This document shows positions 5,657-30,934 of a DNA stretch of 64,000 nt, piece by piece. Location: NCBI GenBank assembly GCA_963663385.2, contig CAXXXD010000002.1:512001-576000 (forward strand), given 5' to 3'. The notes beneath the pieces were generated by a model that saw nothing but the letters and a program-made list of their open reading frames with translations, did no database searches and was not told the origin of the DNA. A program made the translations under genes and the position numbers. The DNA comes from Oceanispirochaeta sp. (GTDB lineage Bacteria > Spirochaetota > Spirochaetia > DSM-2461). How positions within the stretch are numbered: the stretch's first letter is position 1; each line of letters begins with the position of its first letter.

Positions 5657-5698
5657 CATTCCCCCTTCTCCCTTTGGGAGAAGGGTTGGGGATGAGGG
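5657..5698. repeat. REP-like hairpin with G-rich tail (cccttctccc-ttt-gggagaaggg-ttggggatgaggg)
   Basis: Perfect 10 bp stem followed by a GGGG..GAGG tail. Same architecture as the motif flanking the DUF559 genes. Confidence 0.7.
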
Positions 5699-12596: not shown

Positions 12597-13763
12597 TCAC
12601 GGAATCATCAAGCCTTTGAGATAATCTTCGTCTCCCATTTTTTTCAGAGTATCCAGTAGTCCGTTCAGGTCTGTTTTATGGGTATACATCCTATGAAACG
12701 GGATTGTTTCATGCCGTTTCAGGATTTGAAAAGCCTTATCGAAAGCACCCGGGTGATTAGCGCTCATTCCCAGGATTCTGGCGTGTTTGCTGCAGATCAG
12801 CCTGGCCGGGTCAAAGGATATCTCCCTACCCTGATTAACCATATTTCCCACTTCCACATAGGTTCCCAGGCGGCGCATCATCTCAAGGCCGTCGACAAAG
12901 GTATTTATATTATTGGAGCACTGAAGAACAACATCCGCCCCGCCGTCGGTCAGATCCCTGACCATCTCGATCCGTTCCTGCCGGCTGTACTGATGGTAAT
13001 CAATCAAATGGTCCGCTCCCGCAATTTCTCTGGTCAGATCAAGGCGTTTCTGACGGCTCCCGATCATTATAACCTGCTGAGCTCCCATCAGACGGCAGAC
13101 CAGAGCGGAAAGGACCCCGACCTGTCCCGATCCGATAATTACAACCCGGGAACTTGTGGTCAACCCGGCTTCCATTACTCCCGGGCTTGTCTGGGCCAGC
13201 TCCACAGCCCGGACTGCTACAGCCAGGGGATCCAAAAGGGCTGCGATTTCAGAAGGCATATTTTCAGGGATCTTCCAGACATATGTTTCCGGGAAGACAT
13301 AGGTATATTCGGCAAATCCGCCCATGAAATGGGGCCAGCGGCTGATATCGGAACTGATGGTTTCCTCCCCCTCCAGACCCAGTTTGGAGTAGGGAACGCC
13401 GTATACAAAGGAGTCATCGCAGGTTGTGCAGGTTCCGGGACGGTGACTAAGGCAGCCCTGACACTTTCCGCAGGTTATCCAGGGGTAGAGTACAATCCTG
13501 TCTCCCTCCTTCAGGGGGCCCCCGTAAATATTGAGGCTTCTGTTTGCCAGTTTTCCCATCTCAGTTATGGTTCCTGCAATTTCGTGACTCATAATGGCCG
13601 GGTAGGGAGGGATATCCTGTATCAGATGACCGTCTGTTCCGCAGATTCCCGCAGCATCCACCTGAAGAAGCATACCATCCTCTCTGACTTCCGGAAGGGG
13701 GAGGTCACGGATTTCTATATTATATTTATCGAGCCATACGGCTGCTCTGCCGGTCTTTGCCAT
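12597..13763 (-). CDS. Zn-binding medium-chain dehydrogenase
   Basis: GICGTD, SHEIAG, structural-Zn CGKCQGC...C, GSGQVG. Confidence 0.92.
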   Translation of the reverse strand: MAKTGRAAVWLDKYNIEIRDLPLPEVREDGMLLQVDAAGICGTDGHLIQDIPPYPAIMSHEIAGTITEMGKLANRSLNIYGGPLKEGDRIVLYPWITCGKCQGCLSHRPGTCTTCDDSFVYGVPYSKLGLEGEETISSDISRWPHFMGGFAEYTYVFPETYVWKIPENMPSEIAALLDPLAVAVRAVELAQTSPGVMEAGLTTSSRVVIIGSGQVGVLSALVCRLMGAQQVIMIGSRQKRLDLTREIAGADHLIDYHQYSRQERIEMVRDLTDGGADVVLQCSNNINTFVDGLEMMRRLGTYVEVGNMVNQGREISFDPARLICSKHARILGMSANHPGAFDKAFQILKRHETIPFHRMYTHKTDLNGLLDTLKKMGDEDYLKGLMIP

Positions 13764-13790
13764 TTTATTACCCTCTTTCTGTTTCAAATC

Positions 13791-14437: not shown

Positions 14438-15484
14438 ATGAGCAGTCAGGGCAGCAGCAAACTTCCGAAAATCCTGATTCTTGATACGGGAGGTACCATC
14501 AGTCAGAAACCGGGACGGGACGGAACGCTGGTTCCCTGTACAACCGACTATATCGAGATGGTTCCCCGGCTGCATGATATTGCCCGGATAGAACTGGAGC
14601 GCCTGGAGCGGATGGACAGTACGGATATGTCCACCGCACTCAGGGGCCGCATCGCTTCCCGAATCGCCGGTGAATACGGTAATTATGATGGTTTTGTTGT
14701 CCTTCACGGAACGGATACCATGGCCGATACGGCGGCGGCTCTTACCTATATGCTTAAAGGACTGGGGAAGCCGGTTGTATTAACCGGAGCCCAGCTCCCC
14801 ATATTTGCTCCCGGCCCGGACGGGATGAATAACCTGTTCTACTCGGTTAAAGCGGCCGGCATGGATCTGGGAGAAGTGGTTATCTGCTTCGGCGACCGGA
14901 TCCTCCGGGGCTGTCGATCCTCCAAGGAAAACGTCAACGGTTTCAATGCCTTCGGTTCCCATCGTATACCGCCCCTGGGCGAACTGGGGGTGACTGTTCG
15001 TTTGCTGAATCATCGCATTCCCCGCAGCACATCCACTCCGAAGCTGTTTACAGACTTTGATTCGGGGGTCTGTTATCTTCCCATGTCCTCCGGTTCAACC
15101 CTAAACATGCTGGAGTCCCTGGCCCAATGGAAAGACCTGAAGGGTCTGGTTGTGGGCGGATTCGGTACGGGAAATATACCTTCCATACAAATGGCCGGAT
15201 TGGAGAAAATCTTGAACCGGAGCATCCCTGTGGCGGTTGTGACAACCTGTCTTCAGGGGGATACCATCCTGGATCAGTACGAAGTAGGGCAGGTGGTTAA
15301 AAAAGCCGGTGCAATGGAAGGCCTTGATCTTACCCCGGTGTGTGCCGTTCAGAAGCTGATGTATGCCATTGGCCTGGCCGATTCTGAAAATCAAACGGAT
15401 TCTGATCCGGATAAACGACGGCAGAGAATCCATGAAATCTTTCAAACACCTGTTGCACTGGATATGGCCCTATCCACGAACTAG
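14438..15484 (+). CDS. ansA: L-asparaginase type I family
   Basis: TGGTI, DSTDM, VVLHGTDTM, PVVLTGAQ, GFGTGN; no signal peptide. Confidence 0.88.
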   Translation: MSSQGSSKLPKILILDTGGTISQKPGRDGTLVPCTTDYIEMVPRLHDIARIELERLERMDSTDMSTALRGRIASRIAGEYGNYDGFVVLHGTDTMADTAAALTYMLKGLGKPVVLTGAQLPIFAPGPDGMNNLFYSVKAAGMDLGEVVICFGDRILRGCRSSKENVNGFNAFGSHRIPPLGELGVTVRLLNHRIPRSTSTPKLFTDFDSGVCYLPMSSGSTLNMLESLAQWKDLKGLVVGGFGTGNIPSIQMAGLEKILNRSIPVAVVTTCLQGDTILDQYEVGQVVKKAGAMEGLDLTPVCAVQKLMYAIGLADSENQTDSDPDKRRQRIHEIFQTPVALDMALSTN

Positions 15485-15490
15485 GGATTG

Positions 15491-15592
15491 TTCCTCGGCT
15501 ACTTCCACTCCGCTCAGCACGGCGTCCGCTCGGAAAGCTGTTTGGGGTGTTGCGGGATTAACAGATAGGCTCCGTTTCTCGGCTCCGCTCGA
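15491..15592. repeat. Cluster of short CTCGRCT-N-CGCTC motifs (second REP-like family)
   Basis: cttccactccgctcag at 15502-15517, ctcggctccgctcga at 15578-15592, an interrupted copy at 15493-15535, and a related ctcgactacgctcgg at 5608-5622. Confidence 0.5.
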
Positions 15593-15628
15593 CAGGCTAA
15601 ATCCCTTATATGACCTCTCTGATCTTAG

Positions 15629-15820
15629 CCCCTCTCAATCCGGACCCCTCTCAGTCGGACCCCTCTCAGTCTCCCCTCAGGGGAGAAGTTGTATAGTTTC
15701 CCCCCCCCTTAAACGGAAGACTCAATACATTTTTCCCCTCCTGGACCATCCATTTATCACTATTAGGGAAAGTAACAATATATTTTCCCCCTCCCTGAGG
15801 AGGGGGCCAGGGGGAGGTCC
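15629..15820. repeat. Repeat unit R1 (left hairpin motif, spacer, right hairpin motif)
   Basis: ggacccctctcagtc stutter, tctcccc-tca-ggggaga hairpin, then ccccctcc-ctga-ggaggggg-ccagggggaggtcc. Confidence 0.95.
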
Positions 15821-15883
15821 TGAATTGGTCTGATTTTCCCATATATTTGAATCAGAACAGAGCGATTTCCTGTAGATAGTAAT

Positions 15884-16276
15884 ATGGATGATACACAAGT
15901 AAAACCGAATTATATAACTGCAAAATGCTCAATGTATAAAAAGTTAAGAGAGCTTCAGACACTGCAAAGAAAAAAACCAACCAGAGCTGAACGTGTAATG
16001 TGGGAACATCTACGGAATAAGAAATGTGGTTTTAAAATCAGAAGGCAACATATTATTGATCGATATATAGTCGATTTTGTTTGTCTTAGTGTACAGTTAA
16101 TTATTGAAATTGATGGAGAAATCCACAGAAATCAGAAAGAGCAGGATTTGCAGCGTACTGAGAGACTCATTGAACTCGGATATGAAGTTATGCGTTTCTC
16201 AAATAAAGATGTATCTAAGGATCCAAATGCTATCTTTGTAAAAATTAAAGAGAGGCTGGAGGACATGAATCAATAG
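15884..16276 (+). CDS. DUF559 / Vsr-like endonuclease, copy 1
   Basis: PTRAERVMWEHLR, KIRRQH, YIVDFVC, LIIEIDGEIH, QDLQRTERL..LGYEVMRFSN. Confidence 0.9.
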   Translation: MDDTQVKPNYITAKCSMYKKLRELQTLQRKKPTRAERVMWEHLRNKKCGFKIRRQHIIDRYIVDFVCLSVQLIIEIDGEIHRNQKEQDLQRTERLIELGYEVMRFSNKDVSKDPNAIFVKIKERLEDMNQ

Positions 16277-16280
16277 AAAA

Positions 16281-16470
16281 CCCCACTTAGTCGGACCCCT
16301 CTCAGTCCGGACCCCTCTCAGTCTCCCCTCAGGGGAGAAGTAGTATCGTTTTCCCCCCTTAAACGGAAGACTCAATACATTTTTCCCCTCCTGGACCATC
16401 CATTTATCACTATTAGGGAAAGTAACAATACATTTTCCCCCTCCCCGAGGAGGGGGCCAGGGGGAGGTCC
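16281..16470. repeat. Repeat unit R2
   Basis: Near-identical to R1, R3 and R4. Confidence 0.95.
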
Positions 16471-16533
16471 TGAATTGGTCTGATTTTCCCATATATTTTA
16501 ATCAGAACAGAGCGATTTCCTGTAGATAGTAAT

Positions 16534-16926
16534 ATGGATGATACACAAGTAAAACCGAATTATATAACTGCAAAATGCTCAATGTATAAAAAGTTAAGAG
16601 AGCTTCAGACACTGCAAAGAAAAAACCCAACCAGAGCTGAACGTGTAATGTGGGAACATCTACGGAATAAGAAATGTGGTTTTAAAATCAGAAGGCAACA
16701 TATTATTGATCGATATATAGTCGATTTTGTTTGTCTTAGTGTACAGTTAATTATTGAAATTGATGGAGAAATCCACAGAAATCAGAAAGAGCAGGATTTG
16801 CAGCGTACTGAGAGACTCATTGAACTCGGATATGAAGTTATACGTTTCTCAAATAAAGATGTATCTAAGGATCCAAATGCTATCTTTGTAAAAATTAAAG
16901 AGAGGCTGGAGGACATGAATCAATAG
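16534..16926 (+). CDS. DUF559 / Vsr-like endonuclease, copy 2
   Basis: 130 aa. Differs from copy 3 by K->N (RKNP) and from copy 1 additionally by M->I. Confidence 0.9.
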   Translation: MDDTQVKPNYITAKCSMYKKLRELQTLQRKNPTRAERVMWEHLRNKKCGFKIRRQHIIDRYIVDFVCLSVQLIIEIDGEIHRNQKEQDLQRTERLIELGYEVIRFSNKDVSKDPNAIFVKIKERLEDMNQ

Positions 16927-16930
16927 AAAA

Positions 16931-17105
16931 CCCCTCTCAATCCGGACCCCTCTCAGTCTCCCCTCAGGGGAGAAGTAGTATAGTTTTCCCCCCTTAAACG
17001 GAAGACTCAATACATTTTTCCCCTCCTGGACCATCCATTTATCACTATTAGGGAAAGTAACAATACATTTTCCCCCTCCCCGAGGAGGGGGCCAGGGGGA
17101 GGTCC
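16931..17105. repeat. Repeat unit R3 (one 15-16 bp stutter unit shorter)
   Basis: Same unit with only one ggacccctctcagtc copy, which explains the 635 vs 650 bp period. Confidence 0.95.
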
Positions 17106-17168
17106 TGAATTGGTCTGATTTTCCCATATATTTTAATCAGAACAGAGCGATTTCCTGTAGATAGTAAT

Positions 17169-17561
17169 ATGGATGATACACAAGTAAAACCGAATTATAT
17201 AACTGCAAAATGCTCAATGTATAAAAAGTTAAGAGAGCTTCAGACACTGCAAAGAAAAAAACCAACCAGAGCTGAACGTGTAATGTGGGAACATCTACGG
17301 AATAAGAAATGTGGTTTTAAAATCAGAAGGCAACATATTATTGATCGATATATAGTCGATTTTGTTTGTCTTAGTGTACAGTTAATTATTGAAATTGATG
17401 GAGAAATCCACAGAAATCAGAAAGAGCAGGATTTGCAGCGTACTGAGAGACTCATTGAACTCGGATATGAAGTTATACGTTTCTCAAATAAAGATGTATC
17501 TAAGGATCCAAATGCTATCTTTGTAAAAATTAAAGAGAGGCTGGAGGACATGAATCAATAG
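17169..17561 (+). CDS. DUF559 / Vsr-like endonuclease, copy 3
   Basis: 130 aa, same catalytic-type motifs intact. Confidence 0.9.
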   Translation: MDDTQVKPNYITAKCSMYKKLRELQTLQRKKPTRAERVMWEHLRNKKCGFKIRRQHIIDRYIVDFVCLSVQLIIEIDGEIHRNQKEQDLQRTERLIELGYEVIRFSNKDVSKDPNAIFVKIKERLEDMNQ

Positions 17562-17565
17562 AAAA

Positions 17566-17755
17566 CCCCACTTAGTCGGACCCCTCTCAGTCCGGACCCC
17601 TCTCAGTCTCCCCTCAGGGGAGAAGTAGTATCGTTTTCCCCCCTTAAACGGAAGACTCAATACATTTTTCCCCTCCTGGACCATCCATTTATTACTATTA
17701 GGGAAAGTAACAATACATTTTCCCCCTCCCTGAGGAGGGGGCCAGGGGGAGGTCC
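17566..17755. repeat. Repeat unit R4
   Basis: Similarity to the other units ends after gggggaggtcc at 17755, where unique sequence resumes. Confidence 0.95.
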
Positions 17756-17897
17756 GGGAAACATGTCTGACCATAAGAGATAAACTCTGTCGAATTGCCA
17801 TCCTGCATGATATAATTAATACAATGCCTGGAGAATGTGCCATAAGCTGTAAAATCCGGTTTATGAGATTGTCCACATGGAAAATTCAGGAGGCTTC

Positions 17898-19268
17898 ATG
17901 AGTTCTATATTAATTAAAAACTGTGATACCCTTTTTCAGGGTGCGGATAAACCTGTCCTTAAAAACTGCGATCTGTTTGTTGAGAATAATATTATCTGTG
18001 AAATCGGTGTGGATCTGAAAGTTAAGGCCGACAGGGTCATTCCGGGAGAAAAGCGGGTTGTCCTTCCCGGTTTTGTGAATACCCATCACCATTTTTATCA
18101 GACCTTTACCAGAAACCTGCCTGCCGTGCAGAATGCGGAGCTCTTTGAATGGCTGGTCTACCTCTATGATATCTGGAAGCATATAGATATCGACAGCGTC
18201 TATCATTCGTCCATGCTGGCCATGGGGGAACTGCTGAAAACCGGCTGTACCTGTGCGACCGACCACCATTACCTCTATCCCCGGGATATAGACGGGGATA
18301 TCATGGCAGCCCAGTTCGCCGCTTCGGATAAGCTGGGGATGCGCTTTTCTCCCACCAGGGGATCCATGTCCCTGAGCAGGAAAGACGGGGGGCTGCCTCC
18401 GGACTCTGTTGTACAGACGGAAGAGGAAATCCTGAAAGATTCCGAGCGGGTCATAAAGGCCTATCACGACAATTCGGACTTCTCCATGAAGAAAATTGTG
18501 CTGGCTCCCTGCAGCCCCTTCTCCGTAACGGAGAAGCTGATGAAAGAATCTGCCGCTCTGGCCCGGGAATACGGTGTCCGTCTCCATACCCATCTGGCCG
18601 AAACCCGGGATGAGAACGATTTCTGTAAAAAGATGTATGGCCGGCGCCCCCTAAAGGTGATGGAGGACTGCGACTTTCTGGGCGAGGATGTTTTCTTTGC
18701 CCATGGTATACACTTCAATGATGAAGAGCTGGATATTCTTGCTGAAACGAAGACGCATATCGCCCACTGCCCCACATCCAACATGCGCCTGGGTTCCGGG
18801 ATCTGCCGGGTAACCGAGATGATCCCCAAAGGCATCAATGTCGGTCTGGCCGTGGACGGGTCCGCCTCCAACGATTCTTCGGATATGCTGGGGGAAGTCC
18901 GCAATGCCCTGATGCTGCAGCGGGTACATTATGGGGCTGCCGCGGTAACAACCGCGGATGTTTTAAAACTGGCAACCGAAAACGGCGCCCGCCTCTTGGG
19001 GTACAAGAAGGTAGGCCGTCTGGAGGAGGGCATGGCTGCCGACCTGGCAGTTTTCAATATGGACAAACTTGAGTATGCCGGAGCGTTGAGCGATCCTGTA
19101 GCGGCGCTGATATTTTCCGGTTACAATCATGAAGCTGAATATACAATTGTAAACGGAAGGATTGCCGTGGAAAAGGGCAAACTGACCGGTATGGATGAGG
19201 ACGAACTGAAAGAGGCCTGTATGACCCTTTCGAAATCCCTATGGAAAAAAGGAGGAGTGCAAATATGA
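17898..19268 (+). CDS. Amidohydrolase, 8-oxoguanine/isoxanthopterin deaminase-like
   Basis: PGFVNTHHHFYQT, TDHHYLYP, RGSMS...GGLPPD, APCSPFSV, LHTHLAET, HCPTSNMRL, VDGSASND. Confidence 0.87.
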   Translation: MSSILIKNCDTLFQGADKPVLKNCDLFVENNIICEIGVDLKVKADRVIPGEKRVVLPGFVNTHHHFYQTFTRNLPAVQNAELFEWLVYLYDIWKHIDIDSVYHSSMLAMGELLKTGCTCATDHHYLYPRDIDGDIMAAQFAASDKLGMRFSPTRGSMSLSRKDGGLPPDSVVQTEEEILKDSERVIKAYHDNSDFSMKKIVLAPCSPFSVTEKLMKESAALAREYGVRLHTHLAETRDENDFCKKMYGRRPLKVMEDCDFLGEDVFFAHGIHFNDEELDILAETKTHIAHCPTSNMRLGSGICRVTEMIPKGINVGLAVDGSASNDSSDMLGEVRNALMLQRVHYGAAAVTTADVLKLATENGARLLGYKKVGRLEEGMAADLAVFNMDKLEYAGALSDPVAALIFSGYNHEAEYTIVNGRIAVEKGKLTGMDEDELKEACMTLSKSLWKKGGVQI

Positions 19269-23189: not shown

Positions 23190-25037
23190 ATGAAAAAGTA
23201 CCTATCTCTTTTTCTCCTGCTGCCGTTCCTGTTCTTTATGAGCTGTGAATTATTTGACAGTGGAAGTGATAAAGACGATGACGATGATGATGATAATAAT
23301 ACTGAGCAGGTCAGCGGCCTACAGTTTAATATCAGCGGGGCGAAGGCGTTAGCCGGTGGCAGTTCAAGCAGTTCCGGGGTGGAAATGTCCCGTTCCGCCA
23401 GAACGGCAATGTCGGCGGATCTGGTGAAAATCCTGGAAGATGGAACCATAGAAGCTGCGTTAAGTTTTGGTGATGACAACTACAGCTGGACCCCCAATAT
23501 TTCCTTTATGTCTGTTGGGGAGGACGGGAGTGTGTATATCTGTTTTGAATCAATGTATTCTGAGTGGAATTATGATGAAACGGATGGTTCCTCATCAACT
23601 ACCTATCTTCAATTTGTTAGAGTCTATCCTGACAATACCTATGATGTCCTATGGCCACATGAAACAGATTCTGATGAGTATCCCAGTGAGACCATTCAAA
23701 CCTGGACCTGGTATACCGATATGGATATGGATCCATTGGTGAAAGATTCCTCTGGTAATATATATTTTATGACACAGAGCTGGACTAATAGTAAAACTGT
23801 AAACCATATTTATAAGTATTCACCGTCTAGTGGTGGAAGCCCGGTAAGGGTTACTCCGGCAAATTCAACAATGACGATTGATACGTTTAAGGTAGATTCC
23901 AATAGTAATCTTTATATTAAGTCCGGTTGGTCAACTTCTGATAGCTGGATGCGCTGTTATCTTTCGGGCGAAACAACACCTCAAAATATATATTTTACTT
24001 CAACTAATGATACCTGGATTCGAGGGTATAATACGGCTCCTACTGGTAGCGCTCTTATAATCAACGGTTATAATGTGCGGGGAATGAGCGGTATTATAAA
24101 AGCAACAGTAAGCTCTGGTTCTAATCCGGAAATCGATCTCCTATATAGCACCAATAGTTCCAGCTGGGTCTCTTTGGCCATGGATACGGATTACACATGG
24201 GATAATCCAACCAGTTTGATGAATTATACTTATACATATAATCAGGCAACATATTCGTATGATTATACTTTCAGTTGGGATAATGATGTATTATCAGATT
24301 CAAATGTTGTGGAAGATAAAATTCTTCAAAGGATTCAACCATATTATATTGGTGCAGTAACCCTTAAATCCGAGCCATCAGCTTCAGGATGGGATCTGGA
24401 TGCTTCTCCTATAGCTTCTGATGGAGGTTTCACATTTTCAACTGTTGGCGAATGGATTAAAGATCAACCGGAGGATTTTCTTAAAACATGTTTCACTGGA
24501 ACAATGATGAAGGACTGGCTTGCAAATAATAACCTGAGTTATTTCAGTTTTGATTATATTCAGAACATGATTTATGACACAGCCGGAAATCTGTATGGGG
24601 TTTACTTTGACTATAGCGGAACGGGAAATAAAATTGTGAAACTGTTAAATAGTGCTGGAGACCGCAATTTATCCATAATCAGTTCAGCCCATGGCGAAGA
24701 TAAACCGAGTATGATAAAATTTATTGGCAATTATATGTATTACAGATACTCTGTTATGGATGCTTCCGGTTATGAAACAGGTTACAACAAACTGGCCAGG
24801 CTTGATATTACTTCCAGTTCGGATAACAATGATGAGGAGATACTGACTGATAGTTTCTTTACCGGCAAGAATCTTCAGATCCTTACCTATGATGTTGCTG
24901 ACGATAATTCTGTGATGTACTTTTCCGCTTTGGATTATTTTACTAATGAAGTTATCTTTGGAAAAGTTGATTTGACAACCATGACATACAGTGATGTGGA
25001 TTATAGTTCTACATTCAGCGAAATAACCGTATTCTAA
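23190..25037 (+). CDS. Large acidic Ser/Thr/Tyr-rich lipoprotein, unknown function (possibly beta-propeller-like)
   Basis: MKK + hydrophobic core + FFMSC, poly-Asp tether, repeated D..GN(I/L)Y motifs, AT-rich DNA. Confidence 0.8.
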   Translation: MKKYLSLFLLLPFLFFMSCELFDSGSDKDDDDDDDNNTEQVSGLQFNISGAKALAGGSSSSSGVEMSRSARTAMSADLVKILEDGTIEAALSFGDDNYSWTPNISFMSVGEDGSVYICFESMYSEWNYDETDGSSSTTYLQFVRVYPDNTYDVLWPHETDSDEYPSETIQTWTWYTDMDMDPLVKDSSGNIYFMTQSWTNSKTVNHIYKYSPSSGGSPVRVTPANSTMTIDTFKVDSNSNLYIKSGWSTSDSWMRCYLSGETTPQNIYFTSTNDTWIRGYNTAPTGSALIINGYNVRGMSGIIKATVSSGSNPEIDLLYSTNSSSWVSLAMDTDYTWDNPTSLMNYTYTYNQATYSYDYTFSWDNDVLSDSNVVEDKILQRIQPYYIGAVTLKSEPSASGWDLDASPIASDGGFTFSTVGEWIKDQPEDFLKTCFTGTMMKDWLANNNLSYFSFDYIQNMIYDTAGNLYGVYFDYSGTGNKIVKLLNSAGDRNLSIISSAHGEDKPSMIKFIGNYMYYRYSVMDASGYETGYNKLARLDITSSSDNNDEEILTDSFFTGKNLQILTYDVADDNSVMYFSALDYFTNEVIFGKVDLTTMTYSDVDYSSTFSEITVF

Positions 25038-25061
25038 CACCGGTTATTACACGTTAATCAG

Positions 25062-25092
25062 AATCCTGCTGTTCATCAGCAGGATTTTTTTT
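25062..25092 (+). terminator. Intrinsic terminator
   Basis: aatcctgctg-ttcat-cagcaggatt followed by a T-run. Confidence 0.85.
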
Positions 25093-25322
25093 GTGAAGAT
25101 ATCTTCATATTCCGTTAAGAAATAGTAAAAAAATCCCTTTTAATGTGTGATTTTCTTGTTTTTTCTTTGATTTTCTGTAACCTTTGCTTTATCATTGTAC
25201 GTAGTGTTCGCTTATGGAGAAAAAGCCCCTGCCGGTTATACTATTCATTTTTGCGGATGCGGAATGTTGGTTATTTGGTCCGTCGGATCATGTAAGAAAA
25301 AGAAAATTTAGGAGAAGTGCTT

Positions 25323-27086
25323 ATGAAAAAACGCTTGTTATGTGTCATGATTATTTTGAGCGTAATTAGCGCCGCTGTGTTTGCTGATGAGGATTTTAGA
25401 GAGTCGTATACAAACGATGTCACATCAGGAATTTTTAGTGAAGACCAGGATAACTATCTCAGTACAACTGGTTTTGGAAATCTTGAGAGTAACAAACTGT
25501 TTATGTCTCTCGGTTCTCCTGATGAAAGTTCCGGTGCTTTTCAGATTGGAACAGCAAACTTTTTTGACAATCTATATATTGGAACTAGTTTTTATATAGA
25601 TGAATTGGGTACTCAGGGTAATTCAGGTACAGATGTATCAATTACACAGACATCAGATATCGATTATAATAAAACAGCAAGTGGAACTGTCACATCAATT
25701 ACAACTACTGAAAATGAAAAAATAGAATCAACTTATAAATTCGGTAATTCAGGCCAGGTTCTTGTCGGTGTTGGTGATATTGGTATTTCTGTCTACGGTG
25801 GTATGTTTAAATCTGATACAACCGGTACATATGATGGTTATGGTAGTATTGGAACTTCTCAATCTATAGTAAGCAAAGATATGGATGGTAATGTTCTTTC
25901 TGACTATTCAAAAGATTACGATGGCGGTTACCACAATGATTCAACAATTCAGGTATCTCTGGAAGTTGGAGTACCTGTCGGTTCCCTGGATATTAAAGCT
26001 GGTGTATGGACCGAGATTGTTAATGATGAAGAAAAATATACTTACAAAGAAGTTCGGGAAACACCTAATGCCGGTTTTGCAGAATATGAGGGAACGGATG
26101 ATGTTCAGTACTATAAAAAAGAAACCGGAACAAGTTCCAGATTCTCTATTGATAGTGATTCTCTGACAGATTACTGGGCCAATTCAAACGATGGAAATTA
26201 TATAAATATCATTCCCAGTGTCAGTGTTGATACGGCATTTGATACCCCCCTGTTTGGAGGAACAACTCTTGATGTTGGTCTGGCTTATAAGCTTGGTTTG
26301 ATGCTGAGTCCTGTAAGTGAAGAAAGTACTTCTATAACTGAGTATAAAACCAATAATACTGCCGACCCCGGATATGTTAGGACTACTTTAGTTGAAACTG
26401 AAGAAGAAGAGGCTGATGATATCTCCTATATGAACCACATGATTTACCCTTCTTTCAAGTTGACCAAAGATTTTGGTGATTCTGTGAAACTGGGTGTTTC
26501 TTATAAGCCAATGATTTCAATCATCAATCAGGAAGTAACAGATACACATTCCAAAACAGTTACTACTACCTATGATGACGGCAGAGCTGCAACAGATGAT
26601 GATTATGTAGAAGTTGTAACAACCTCTTATGCTGATGAAACCACAACTACCGAGACTTTCAAATATGATTATGATTTGGGTGTTGGTGCTCAGTTTATGC
26701 TGAAAGAACGTTTGAGAATCAATGTTGGTGCAAAGGCAACTGTTCAGGCTCTGACAATAGCTTCTGAAAAGAAAGATGTTGATGGTATTGGAGAAGTTCA
26801 GACTGTAAGATACAGACCTGATGAAGATGGGACAAGCTACACCACTACTTATTCAGAATCAGATCCGGATCCGGATCCTGATAGTGATCCTTCTACAGAT
26901 GATGGAACAACTCCTGCTCAGACTCAGTATAACCAGAATCTTGGTATAACAATGGCCTATGAAGCTGGTTTTACCTTCTTCTACAATGACAGTCTTACAC
27001 TGGATATGAAAGCAAACATGTTAGGAACAACTACAAATGTATTTGCATTTGATACATGGTCTGCAGAATTCACATTTTCTTACTAA
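25323..27086 (+). CDS. Putative outer-membrane beta-barrel protein with large acidic loops
   Basis: Signal peptide ending AVFA, alternating amphipathic strands, C-terminal aromatic beta-signal (AEFTFSY), DPDPDPDSDP loop. Confidence 0.75.
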   Translation: MKKRLLCVMIILSVISAAVFADEDFRESYTNDVTSGIFSEDQDNYLSTTGFGNLESNKLFMSLGSPDESSGAFQIGTANFFDNLYIGTSFYIDELGTQGNSGTDVSITQTSDIDYNKTASGTVTSITTTENEKIESTYKFGNSGQVLVGVGDIGISVYGGMFKSDTTGTYDGYGSIGTSQSIVSKDMDGNVLSDYSKDYDGGYHNDSTIQVSLEVGVPVGSLDIKAGVWTEIVNDEEKYTYKEVRETPNAGFAEYEGTDDVQYYKKETGTSSRFSIDSDSLTDYWANSNDGNYINIIPSVSVDTAFDTPLFGGTTLDVGLAYKLGLMLSPVSEESTSITEYKTNNTADPGYVRTTLVETEEEEADDISYMNHMIYPSFKLTKDFGDSVKLGVSYKPMISIINQEVTDTHSKTVTTTYDDGRAATDDDYVEVVTTSYADETTTTETFKYDYDLGVGAQFMLKERLRINVGAKATVQALTIASEKKDVDGIGEVQTVRYRPDEDGTSYTTTYSESDPDPDPDSDPSTDDGTTPAQTQYNQNLGITMAYEAGFTFFYNDSLTLDMKANMLGTTTNVFAFDTWSAEFTFSY

Positions 27087-27105
27087 GAGAAAAGGAGCAT
27101 AGAGT

Positions 27106-28446
27106 ATGAATAAAACTATAAAGATTCTTTTTTCTCTTCTGATTATGGCTGCTTTGGTGATGACCGGATGTAATGTCGGTAGTTTTTCACCTGAAATCGG
27201 AGGGGAAGACGACGTAATAGCAAGTATTGCTACTAATACGAATGGATTAAGTACAACTAATCTGGTTGTTGGTACTGCAACTGGTACCCTGTCAAATACA
27301 ACCGGTCAGGTAATAACTATCACCTTTACTGGGATTGTAGATGTATCAGGAACAACAATTCCCGGACTGTCCATTACCAATATGGGTACCATTACCGGTG
27401 CAACAGCTGGTGTAGCTAAATCTCAGGGATCGGCTCTGACTTATACTGCTGAAGTCTTCCAGACAGGAGCCAACTCTTCTACTGCTTATTTGACTCTGGA
27501 CTGTACCAGTGCGACAAGCTGGATTGAGCTGATTATCGATGCCGGTTCCGTAACTGGTAACGGCGGAACCATTCATTTGTCATCCGGTGATGATGAGATC
27601 CCCGGTGAAGACGAAGATGATTATATCAAAGAGTTTGCTGTAACCGGCGGTACACCAGTAACCAATGACGGTACTGTAAGGGATCCTGATGCAACCGTTA
27701 CGATAACTCCTCTTGCAATGGGTGTTAATGAAATCACTACTACTGTAACAGATACTGTTAATACCCATGATTTTGCATTGGCTACTCTCAGCTCTGCTGT
27801 AAGTGTTTATTCATTTTCAAATGGAGCCTATACATTATTTACCCATACACCTGCTTTCAATACGACCACCGGTGTATACTCCATCCCCGCGACAACAACC
27901 GGTAATCAGCTCTATAAAATCTACTGGAATGAATATGATATTGTAGAGAATGCTGCCAAGAATGGTTATTTTCACAGAGTCAGTTTTGATCAGCTTGATG
28001 ATGATAACCTGAGTGATAATTCTGCCATTCTTTCTGTTGGAACTTTCAGGTCATTTAATAATTCTGCCCAGTCATTTGCCGGTCAGCCTACTATTACTAT
28101 TGACAGTAATGGTGGTTATATCAATATGGCTCAGATTACTGCAGCCAATGTCTCTGTAAAGGTATTTGTAGATACAGGTAACGATGGTCAGATTGATAAT
28201 CCTAATTCAGACTGGGTGTATGATGTAGATTTTACAGTACGGAAAGTTGATGATGATACTTTTATGCTGTATCTGCCTGCAGAGATCGGTATTGATGGTG
28301 ACTGGTCTTACGTTGTAACTATTCAGCCTGTAATTCAGGATCTTGGTGCTACCTATCCCACAACTCCTGCAGACACAACAGATGACTACATGCATGTCTC
28401 CACAACTTCGGAAGATGGTGCATTTGTTCTGACAGGTAACTTCTAA
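27106..28446 (+). CDS. Thr-rich surface lipoprotein, unknown function
   Basis: AGGAG RBS, signal peptide ending VMTGC, beta-rich Thr/Gly/Asp composition. Confidence 0.8.
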   Translation: MNKTIKILFSLLIMAALVMTGCNVGSFSPEIGGEDDVIASIATNTNGLSTTNLVVGTATGTLSNTTGQVITITFTGIVDVSGTTIPGLSITNMGTITGATAGVAKSQGSALTYTAEVFQTGANSSTAYLTLDCTSATSWIELIIDAGSVTGNGGTIHLSSGDDEIPGEDEDDYIKEFAVTGGTPVTNDGTVRDPDATVTITPLAMGVNEITTTVTDTVNTHDFALATLSSAVSVYSFSNGAYTLFTHTPAFNTTTGVYSIPATTTGNQLYKIYWNEYDIVENAAKNGYFHRVSFDQLDDDNLSDNSAILSVGTFRSFNNSAQSFAGQPTITIDSNGGYINMAQITAANVSVKVFVDTGNDGQIDNPNSDWVYDVDFTVRKVDDDTFMLYLPAEIGIDGDWSYVVTIQPVIQDLGATYPTTPADTTDDYMHVSTTSEDGAFVLTGNF

Positions 28447-30898: not shown

Positions 30899-30934
30899 TT
30901 TCCCCCTCCCCGAGGAGGGGGCCAGGGGGAGGTC
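30899..30934. repeat. Solitary copy of the DUF559-array right-hand hairpin motif
   Basis: tttccccctccccgaggagggggccagggggaggtc is identical over 36 bp to the ends of R2 and R3 and overlaps the stop codon of the adjacent gene. Confidence 0.92.

Follow-up and report, generated by a model that had tools for sequence, protein, structure and literature searches.

Tandem DUF559 nuclease genes alternating with triplex-motif repeats in an Oceanispirochaeta genome, and a candidate partnership between nuclease and repeat

A 64,000-nt stretch of the genome of Oceanispirochaeta sp. (assembly GCA_963663385.2, contig CAXXXD010000002.1, positions 512,001-576,000 of the forward strand; this whole stretch is hereafter the window, and its numbering is used throughout) carries three near-identical genes of the DUF559 family that alternate with four copies of a repeat unit, R, of 175-192 bp. 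We consider it probable, at roughly 60%, that this array records a recent threefold tandem amplification of a DUF559 cassette and that the encoded nuclease is the cognate partner of triplex repeats dispersed through the genome, which it would spread. The array has exact borders and occupies a site that is empty in relatives. Its repeats are built of three sequence blocks, they are coupled to DUF559 genes both physically and in their distribution among genomes, and repeat type matches nuclease clade.

The strict alternation of repeat and gene that an earlier note on this DNA had described was borne out, with three DUF559 open reading frames (ORFs) and four R units at an R-unit period of 650, 635 and 650 nt. 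When R1-R4 were aligned, similarity started at the first 'cccc' of a tandem tail repeat (15629 in R1) and stopped exactly at ...GGGGGAGGTCC (15820, 16470, 17105 and 17755). Because R1-R3 run into leader and gene while R4 runs into unrelated DNA, the array can be written as R + (leader-gene-R) x 3. The variants of R form a mosaic, with loop ctga in R1 and R4, loop ccga in R2 and R3 and left-half variants common to R2 and R4, and the gene copies are 99.5-100% identical in nucleotide sequence, their proteins differing only by K31N and M104I. Copy number was checked by the word depth of Logan contigs, which by the tool's own warning is no copy number: the collapsed gene contig stood at 2.6x (run X1) and 2.1x (run X2) the depth of the flank contigs, which hints weakly at more than one gene copy. 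Contigs of run X6, from another sample, span both array junctions, with four base differences and a deletion of one 16-nt tail copy (at 15629). A joint from 17109 to 17715 in run X1, with a 46-nt side, was set aside as probably stemming from other genomic copies of the motif at the right end of R.

Each of the three genes matches the Pfam family DUF559 (PF04480) at E 9.6e-33 (112.8 bits, cut-off 20.6) and is poor in G and C (0.34 versus 0.477 for the window), and the DUF559 genes of relatives are likewise GC-poor for their loci. Residues D64, E75, D77, G78, H81, D88 and R91 are invariant across 20 homologues and are kept in all three copies, in agreement with the earlier description of a 130-aa Vsr-like nuclease whose catalytic pattern is intact. 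The protein matches PDB entry 3HRL at E 4e-17, and an AlphaFold2 model made from the 20-sequence alignment (pLDDT 87.7) found the same DUF559 structure as its best Foldseek match (E 6.7e-7, TM-score 0.90), together with the catalytic domain of the homing endonuclease I-Bth0305I (3R3P; E 9.5e-4, TM-score 0.69) and, weakly, Vsr (1VSR; E 0.059, TM-score 0.40). As modelled, the protein is a single-domain nuclease of Vsr-like PD-(D/E)XK fold that shares its catalytic fold and conserved acidic and His residues with I-Bth0305I and Vsr. It differs from Vsr in giving no match to the Vsr family profile (the Pfam scan returned only DUF559 and MTES_1575 at E up to 0.001), and from EDxHD homing endonucleases in that it is a single domain of 130 aa whose gene is intergenic, between doublets of motifs, and has no intron, intein or host-gene context. 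Some DUF559 ORFs (P0003, P0012 and P0014) extend into the downstream repeat and thereby gain Pro/Ser/Gly-rich tails, e.g. '...SPLSVSGPLSVSP'; called protein ends in the family may therefore be repeat read-through.

The left end of R had been taken for a degenerate reverse complement of its right end; the two proved alike in architecture and are not literal reverse complements. Each opens with a pyrimidine arm, which is followed by a loop and the complementary purine arm; the latter recurs 1-4 nt farther on as a mirror copy. Type A, at the left end on the minus strand, reads TCTCCCC / loop / GGGGAGA / AGAGGGG (7-nt stems, loops of 3 and 3), and type B, at the right end on the plus strand, reads CCCCCTCC / loop / GGAGGGGG / GGGGGAGG (8-nt stems, loops of 4 and 3). 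Holder et al. (2015, NAR; PMC4666352) equate the triplex motif (TM) with BoxC and PIT elements and lay down for the class II intrastrand form three compatible blocks, each 6-15 nt long, with loops of 1-6 nt and at most one mismatch. We coded a motif finder to these rules (PMC4666352), and both A and B motifs fall within them with zero mismatches. Judged by sequence, the ends of R are intrastrand triplex motifs of the BoxC/PIT/TM class and not a new kind of repeat.

The finder returned 175 hits, 140 of them good, in the 5.3-Mb genome, compared with 7 and 16 hits (2 and 2 good) in two first-order Markov simulations. By stem, the good motifs comprise 57 of type B, 40 of type A, 26 of type D (the E. 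coli-like GGGAGAGGG form), 8 of type C and 9 others. A control that did not presuppose a third block yielded about 196 perfect 7-bp pyrimidine/purine hairpins, and in 88 of these the purine arm is followed on its 3' side, no more than 13 nt away, by its exact mirror; among the same hairpins none has the mirror on the other side and none has a direct repeat in the mirror's place. Motif pairs are mostly inverted with tails outward, 31 being (-)(+) with spacers of 12-152 nt, and the other short pairs number 4 (+)(-) and 6 (+)(+). Of the REPIN-like character first ascribed to the repeats, the inverted pairing was thus upheld. The partners of type A motifs are B or C, and R is such a doublet with a long spacer. 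The repeats resemble BoxC/PIT/TM elements in their three blocks (pyrimidine, purine and mirror purine stems), short loops, richness in G and C and multi-copy, dispersed occurrence, and the 26 D-type copies resemble the E. coli form in particular, whereas the heterotypic inverted pairs (A with B or C), the differing sequence of the 7-8-nt stems and the tie to DUF559 set the repeats of this genome apart.

Several further features of the repeats were recorded. The tail of the A motif seems prone to stutter, its copy number differing among R1-R4 and in run X6, and eight tandem 18-nt copies of it lie upstream of the second DUF559 locus of the genome (C2:1393764-1393871, L004). Solo motifs with no adjacent DUF559 gene are present in the window at 30902-30932 (+), of type B with stems identical to those of the array's B motifs, and at 5663-5698 (+), D-like (GGGAGAAGGG). 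Tandem repeat arrays lie beside DUF559 genes in relatives G033 (L017, 1862-2409) and G007 (L020, 877-1340), made of triplex-motif doublets with a period of ~284 bp or of single motifs at ~193-235 bp; the repeats by themselves also amplify in tandem.

Coupling between gene and repeat is seen within this genome, whose five DUF559 genes are spread over three loci. At the second (C2:1393207-1393521) there is an R-gene-R cassette (C2:1393092-1393743) whose short doublets have an 18-nt spacer, and the third (C3:420331-420618) has a doublet upstream only. A motif lies within 20-184 bp at all three loci, for which the expectation is 1.8% for a random segment and ~6e-6 for three. Viewed from the repeats, the only families found at three or more of 90 motif clusters, among ORFs within 1.2 kb, were ABC ATPase (5) and DUF559 (3). 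A RAYT flanked by the same motif, which the earlier note had named as a finding that would undo its proposal, was not seen: the five Y1_Tnp (PF01797) genes of the genome lie 6.8-93 kb from their nearest motif.

The coupling extends across genomes, and two checks that the earlier note had proposed, of motif enrichment beside DUF559 genes and of motif copies relative to DUF559 presence, came out in its favour. A homologue scan with one genome per species gave 80 loci of 40-59% identity, mostly from Bacteroidota, with some from Saccharibacteria, Patescibacteria, Ignavibacteriota and Chloroflexota. A good motif was present within 300 bp at 64 of the 80 and on both sides at 42, and the first 300 bp held 116 motifs versus a total of 46 in nine farther 300-bp bins, so that motif density is 21-fold higher beside the gene. 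Elsewhere the gene commonly lies within the doublet, as motif(-) gene motif(+), which is the layout in 40 of 88 entries (the 80 loci minus 3 with a stop codon or fewer than 95 aa, plus 10 loci of relatives and the window). Among 41 relatives, DUF559 was found in seven genomes, in one as just a weak domain hit inside a long ORF, and three motif patterns were found in seven, namely in 6 of 7 DUF559-positive versus 1 of 34 DUF559-negative genomes. The lone motif-bearing DUF559-negative relative has two copies and an assembly of 360 contigs, the remaining 33 have neither gene nor motif, and a reversed-pattern control gave 0 in all relatives' genomes. Similarly, among 151 genomes sampled from the phylum, the D pattern occurred in 14 of 33 DUF559-positive versus 2 of 118 negative genomes, the latter with one copy each. 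The Fisher values for these two comparisons, 1e-5 and 4e-9, overstate the association because kin are not independent. In E. coli K-12, a BoxC-type motif lies 167 bp downstream of ycjD (annotated DUF559; L113, NC_000913.3 1351204-1351760) and has the usual orientation. The ycjD gene occupies the fabI-sapF site in E. coli phylogroups without the eefRABCD operon (PMC12817139), and its product is simply classified as PD-(D/E)XK (Kosinski et al. 2005, PMC1189080).

Motif type also varies with nuclease phylogeny, as had been proposed. In a quick IQ-TREE analysis of the same 88 entries, in which 44 of 85 inner branches are unresolved, the window gene and the second locus are sisters (99%). They belong, along with the third locus, a single gene from relative G003 and genes of Bacteroidota and Saccharibacteria, to an A/B clade with 86-94% support in the Shimodaira-Hasegawa-like approximate likelihood-ratio test (SH-aLRT), in which the strict finder called a flanking motif at 11 of 12 entries, all A/B-like (GGAGGGG-type); in entry L084 of this clade the stem is of GGAGGAG type. 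A separate clade (99% SH-aLRT) is made up of the D-flanked genes from relatives. Five genomes with B-flanked DUF559 genes contain 6, 17, 13, 34 and 21 B motifs, and three of the five are also rich in D motifs, whereas five genomes with D-flanked genes contain 1, 1, 0, 0 and 0 B motifs along with 20, 26, 3, 11 and 12 D motifs. The B pattern, of which this genome has 40 copies, was found in none of the 150 other genomes of the phylum sample. Farther afield, the gene at a Prolixibacteraceae locus (L036, 51% identity) is preceded at 36 nt by the same A(-)-38 nt-B(+) doublet, and a Paludibacter locus (L047) is, by eye, another R-gene-R. Going by these comparisons, the A/B cassette was apparently imported and then expanded: the A/B repeat type and its nuclease clade would have entered the lineage by horizontal transfer before multiplying. 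Two features are particular to this genome, the triple gene array and a motif type that was apparently imported and expanded.

The array site is empty in those genus relatives that keep the synteny. The order fucU-ansA-amidohydrolase is maintained in 6 of 9 of them, with motif-free ansA-amidohydrolase gaps of ~170-640 bp versus 2392 bp in this genome, and a whole-genome family search, in which the intervals were not separately searched, reported no DUF559 at these sites. A look for empty sites in relatives had been proposed, and the earlier view that the amplification is recent is supported. A gap of 7 nt separates the right end of the array from an 'atgtctgac ... tataat'-like element; relatives share this element upstream of the amidohydrolase gene. 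This element, 'atgtctgac ... (g)tgatataattaa', is found at 17762-17815 of the window and at loci L028-L032, and is probably a promoter or operator of the amidohydrolase gene.

Arrays of the gene are rare, since a further DUF559 copy within 3 kb was seen at none of the 80 homologous loci (L109 proved to be a single, frameshifted gene). An R-gene-R cassette like that of the second locus would amplify by unequal homologous recombination between its ~190-bp direct R units, and we regard it as quite likely that unequal exchange of this kind produced the array. Because such exchange yields the observed borders and variant mosaic, the array needs no special mobility mechanism. An R-gene circle that integrates at a resident R would give the same product and would be indistinguishable from unequal exchange here. 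Circular permutation of the common -G+ cassette (G denoting the gene, with the signs giving the strands of its nearest motifs) was rejected, on reasoning only, as it cannot yield the observed order.

The coordinates of the array and its surroundings are given in Table 1. The array lies between unrelated metabolic genes, as noted from the start, and the claim that no transposase or integrase is nearby held among the 19 ORFs scanned with Pfam (window 2.9-29.4 kb, ~12 kb around the array), for which none of these families was reported. Three of the 19 ORFs have no family at all, and the ORF at 12597-13787 has two extra matches below cut-off, to a CXXC zinc-finger and an alanine-dehydrogenase family. 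Three successive large ORFs (615, 589 and 446 aa) at 23190-28443 (+) have no Pfam family at E up to 1e-5. A scan of 15450-17900 found no promoter-like (sigma-70-type) site on the plus strand and no terminator-like site; its three minus-strand matches all lie inside genes and are fewer than in shuffles.

Table 1. Features of the DUF559 array and its flanks (window coordinates)
Feature	Position	Strand	Remarks
Asparaginase gene (ansA-like), left flank	14438..15484	+	Pfam; synteny in relatives
R1 doublet, spacer ~100 nt	15629..15820	.	A motif 15660-15686 (-), B motif 15787-15817 (+); left edge is left end of array
A-motif tail (third-strand segment), 2.8 tandem 15-nt copies	15629..15671	-	R1
A-motif tail, tandem copies of 16-nt unit	16280-16323 and 17565-17608		R2 and R4 regions
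Leader of 63 nt, B motif to ATG	15821..15883	+	recurs at 16471-16533 and 17106-17168
DUF559 gene copy 1, 130 aa	15884..16276	+	K31, M104
R2 doublet	16281..16470	.	A motif 16312-16338 (-), B motif 16437-16467 (+)
DUF559 gene copy 2, 130 aa	16534..16926	+	N31, I104
R3 doublet	16931..17105	.	lacks 15 nt (one tail copy); A motif 16947-16973 (-), B motif 17072-17102 (+)
DUF559 gene copy 3, 130 aa	17169..17561	+	K31, I104
R4 doublet	17566..17755	.	A motif 17597-17623 (-), B motif 17722-17752 (+); right edge is end of array
whalefall-1 matches, sub-threshold	15785-15819, 16435-16469, 17070-17104, 17720-17754		
Amidohydrolase gene (deaminase-like), right flank	17877..19268	+	Pfam; synteny in relatives

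The tight co-occurrence of gene and repeat, the type matching and the expansion of an apparently imported type speak for repeats whose spread depends on the nuclease. Such a nuclease would recognise its own repeat type when single-stranded and folded, as a hairpin or triplex, and cut at or near the fold, and host repair and recombination would then copy the repeats, and sometimes the gene, to new sites, in the manner of Ssn-SRM or RAYT-REP; it is by analogy with these systems that we infer cutting and spreading. RAYTs are Y1 HUH transposases flanked by REP/REPIN repeats. The likeness lies in one gene flanked by inverted short palindromic repeats, which are far more abundant than the gene and often form inverted doublets, and the difference in a nuclease in place of an HUH transposase and in DUF559 genes that are patchy, multi-copy and look horizontally transferred. 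The earlier proposal of a RAYT-analogous system was right as to layout and inverted pairs and is not needed for the array itself, which unequal recombination explains; by analogy the closest functional precedent is, as much as RAYT-REP, Ssn with its SRM/NTS repeats.

According to Chenal et al. (2025, Nat Commun; PMC11893778), Ssn cleaves single-stranded DNA (ssDNA) near its repeat, which accompanies 71% of loci and lies on both sides at 42%, compared with 80% and 52% for DUF559. In both systems the gene of a small single-domain nuclease is flanked by a dispersed hairpin repeat of its own, with repeat variants that match nuclease variants. They differ in that Ssn is a GIY-YIG protein (cd10448) and DUF559 is PD-(D/E)XK and Vsr-like, that SRM is a plain hairpin whereas the DUF559-linked repeats carry a third, mirror block, and that the activity of Ssn is proven in vitro whereas that of DUF559 is predicted from its fold. 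In full-text searches, which left subscription journals outside their coverage, none of the literature on DUF559 concerned repeats by title, and a search joining BoxC, triplex, endonuclease and repeat gave only an unrelated paper. The available text of Holder et al. (PMC4666352) reports no mobility gene or common flanking gene near TM_ECO, and the words 'endonuclease' and 'Vsr' do not occur in it.

A number of observations weigh against a nuclease that spreads its cognate repeats. With the strict finder, 16 of the 80 homologous loci have no motif within 300 bp, as is also the case for two loci of relatives (L011 and L012). Of the motifs in this genome, the 26 of type D and 8 of type C have no adjacent DUF559 gene, and at the 31 inverted doublets no target-site duplications were seen by eye. 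The genes of the array stand between doublets, with nearest motifs +G-, unlike the common -G+ layout. Relative G003 has an A/B-clade gene, yet only three B motifs, so the presence of the gene is no guarantee of motif expansion, and the co-variation of clade with flanking type is partly trivial because gene and motif are linked DNA. Some DUF559-negative calls may be false, since the family search misses E. coli ycjD in the control set. Copy number rests solely on the assembly and on contig word depths. We know of no strand-transfer activity for a lone PD-(D/E)XK nuclease, and the proposed cutting and spreading role is a prediction from sequence comparison.

Taken more broadly, DUF559 proteins could be the missing partner enzymes of BoxC/PIT/triplex repeats, a third independent nuclease-repeat partnership after RAYT-REP and Ssn-SRM, with a cycle of import, expansion and amplification in this genome. 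We advance this tentatively, at a little under even odds. A Vsr-fold nuclease would then read the three-block, triplex-capable fold of ssDNA and drive the spread of its own repeat type, and the A/B cassette would have come from a Bacteroidota-like source, given rise to ~100 motifs and finally undergone tandem gene amplification.

We think it unlikely that the DUF559 gene is instead a homing-type selfish gene for which the triplex doublets are landing sites or homology arms only, the repeats spreading by other means. The resemblance of the fold to I-Bth0305I fits this idea, as do the frequent placement of the gene inside a doublet (40 of the 88 entries) and the existence of gene-free doublets as possible empty sites. 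However, it leads one to expect that gene-free, repeat-rich genomes are common, whereas only 1 of 34 DUF559-negative relatives (2 copies) and 2 of the 118 DUF559-negative genomes in the phylum sample (1 copy each) hold motifs; moreover, the B type is confined within that sample to this genome, where it accompanies the apparently imported gene clade, and the genes in the window adjoin intact doublets and do not lie inside one.

It is slightly less probable still that DUF559 serves an Ssn-like host function without mobility, in which ssDNA cutting at the repeats modulates transformation, recombination or replication past triplex-forming sites and adjacency reflects co-inheritance. Ssn, with the same repeat-gene-repeat layout, cuts ssDNA near its repeat and modulates transformation (PMC11893778), and in E. 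coli a link exists between TM loci and rearrangement of the genome (PMC4666352). Such a function leaves unexplained, however, why cognate repeats number tens to hundreds only where the gene is, and why the genes have a patchy cross-phylum distribution and a low GC content, as of a mobile cassette.

That there is no functional link, the triplex repeats being recombination hot spots that trap small genes by chance, we regard as very improbable: TM-bearing loci are indeed more rearranged among E. coli strains (PMC4666352), but a single gene family accounts for the adjacency and the co-occurrence is far from chance. The weakest form of this view, an assembly artefact of a single copy, gains from a copy-number check that rests on contigs and not on raw reads, and is opposed by three copies that differ at fixed sites, by the 15-nt indel of R3 and by the contig depth of 2.1-2.6x the flanks. 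Least credible of all is an RNA role for R, whether as a structured leader or as a small RNA in control of the DUF559 gene, to which the place of the B motif 63 nt upstream of each ATG and its sub-threshold Rfam match to whalefall-1 (RF01762; 24.1-24.4 bits versus a gathering score of 37) would lend themselves, since most motif copies have no adjacent DUF559 gene and occur in both orientations and the third block, a mirror repeat, base-pairs with nothing in RNA. The metagenome 'RNA motif' whalefall-1 may itself be a DNA repeat of the triplex class.

BoxC/PIT/TM repeats have been on record since the 1990s, from E. coli and from hundreds of other genomes, and to our knowledge no function, origin or partner protein has been assigned to them, nor any role to DUF559, a large and widespread family with a solved structure. 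The link between DUF559 and BoxC makes both the family and the repeat testable with simple assays. If it is true that the nuclease reads a triplex-capable fold, this would represent a new mode of structure-specific DNA recognition, with possible use as a tool comparable to Ssn for ssDNA. The Oceanispirochaeta genome offers a natural experiment to this end, with a motif type found in 0 of 150 other genomes sampled from its phylum and present in 40 copies here, along with five nuclease copies of the matching clade.

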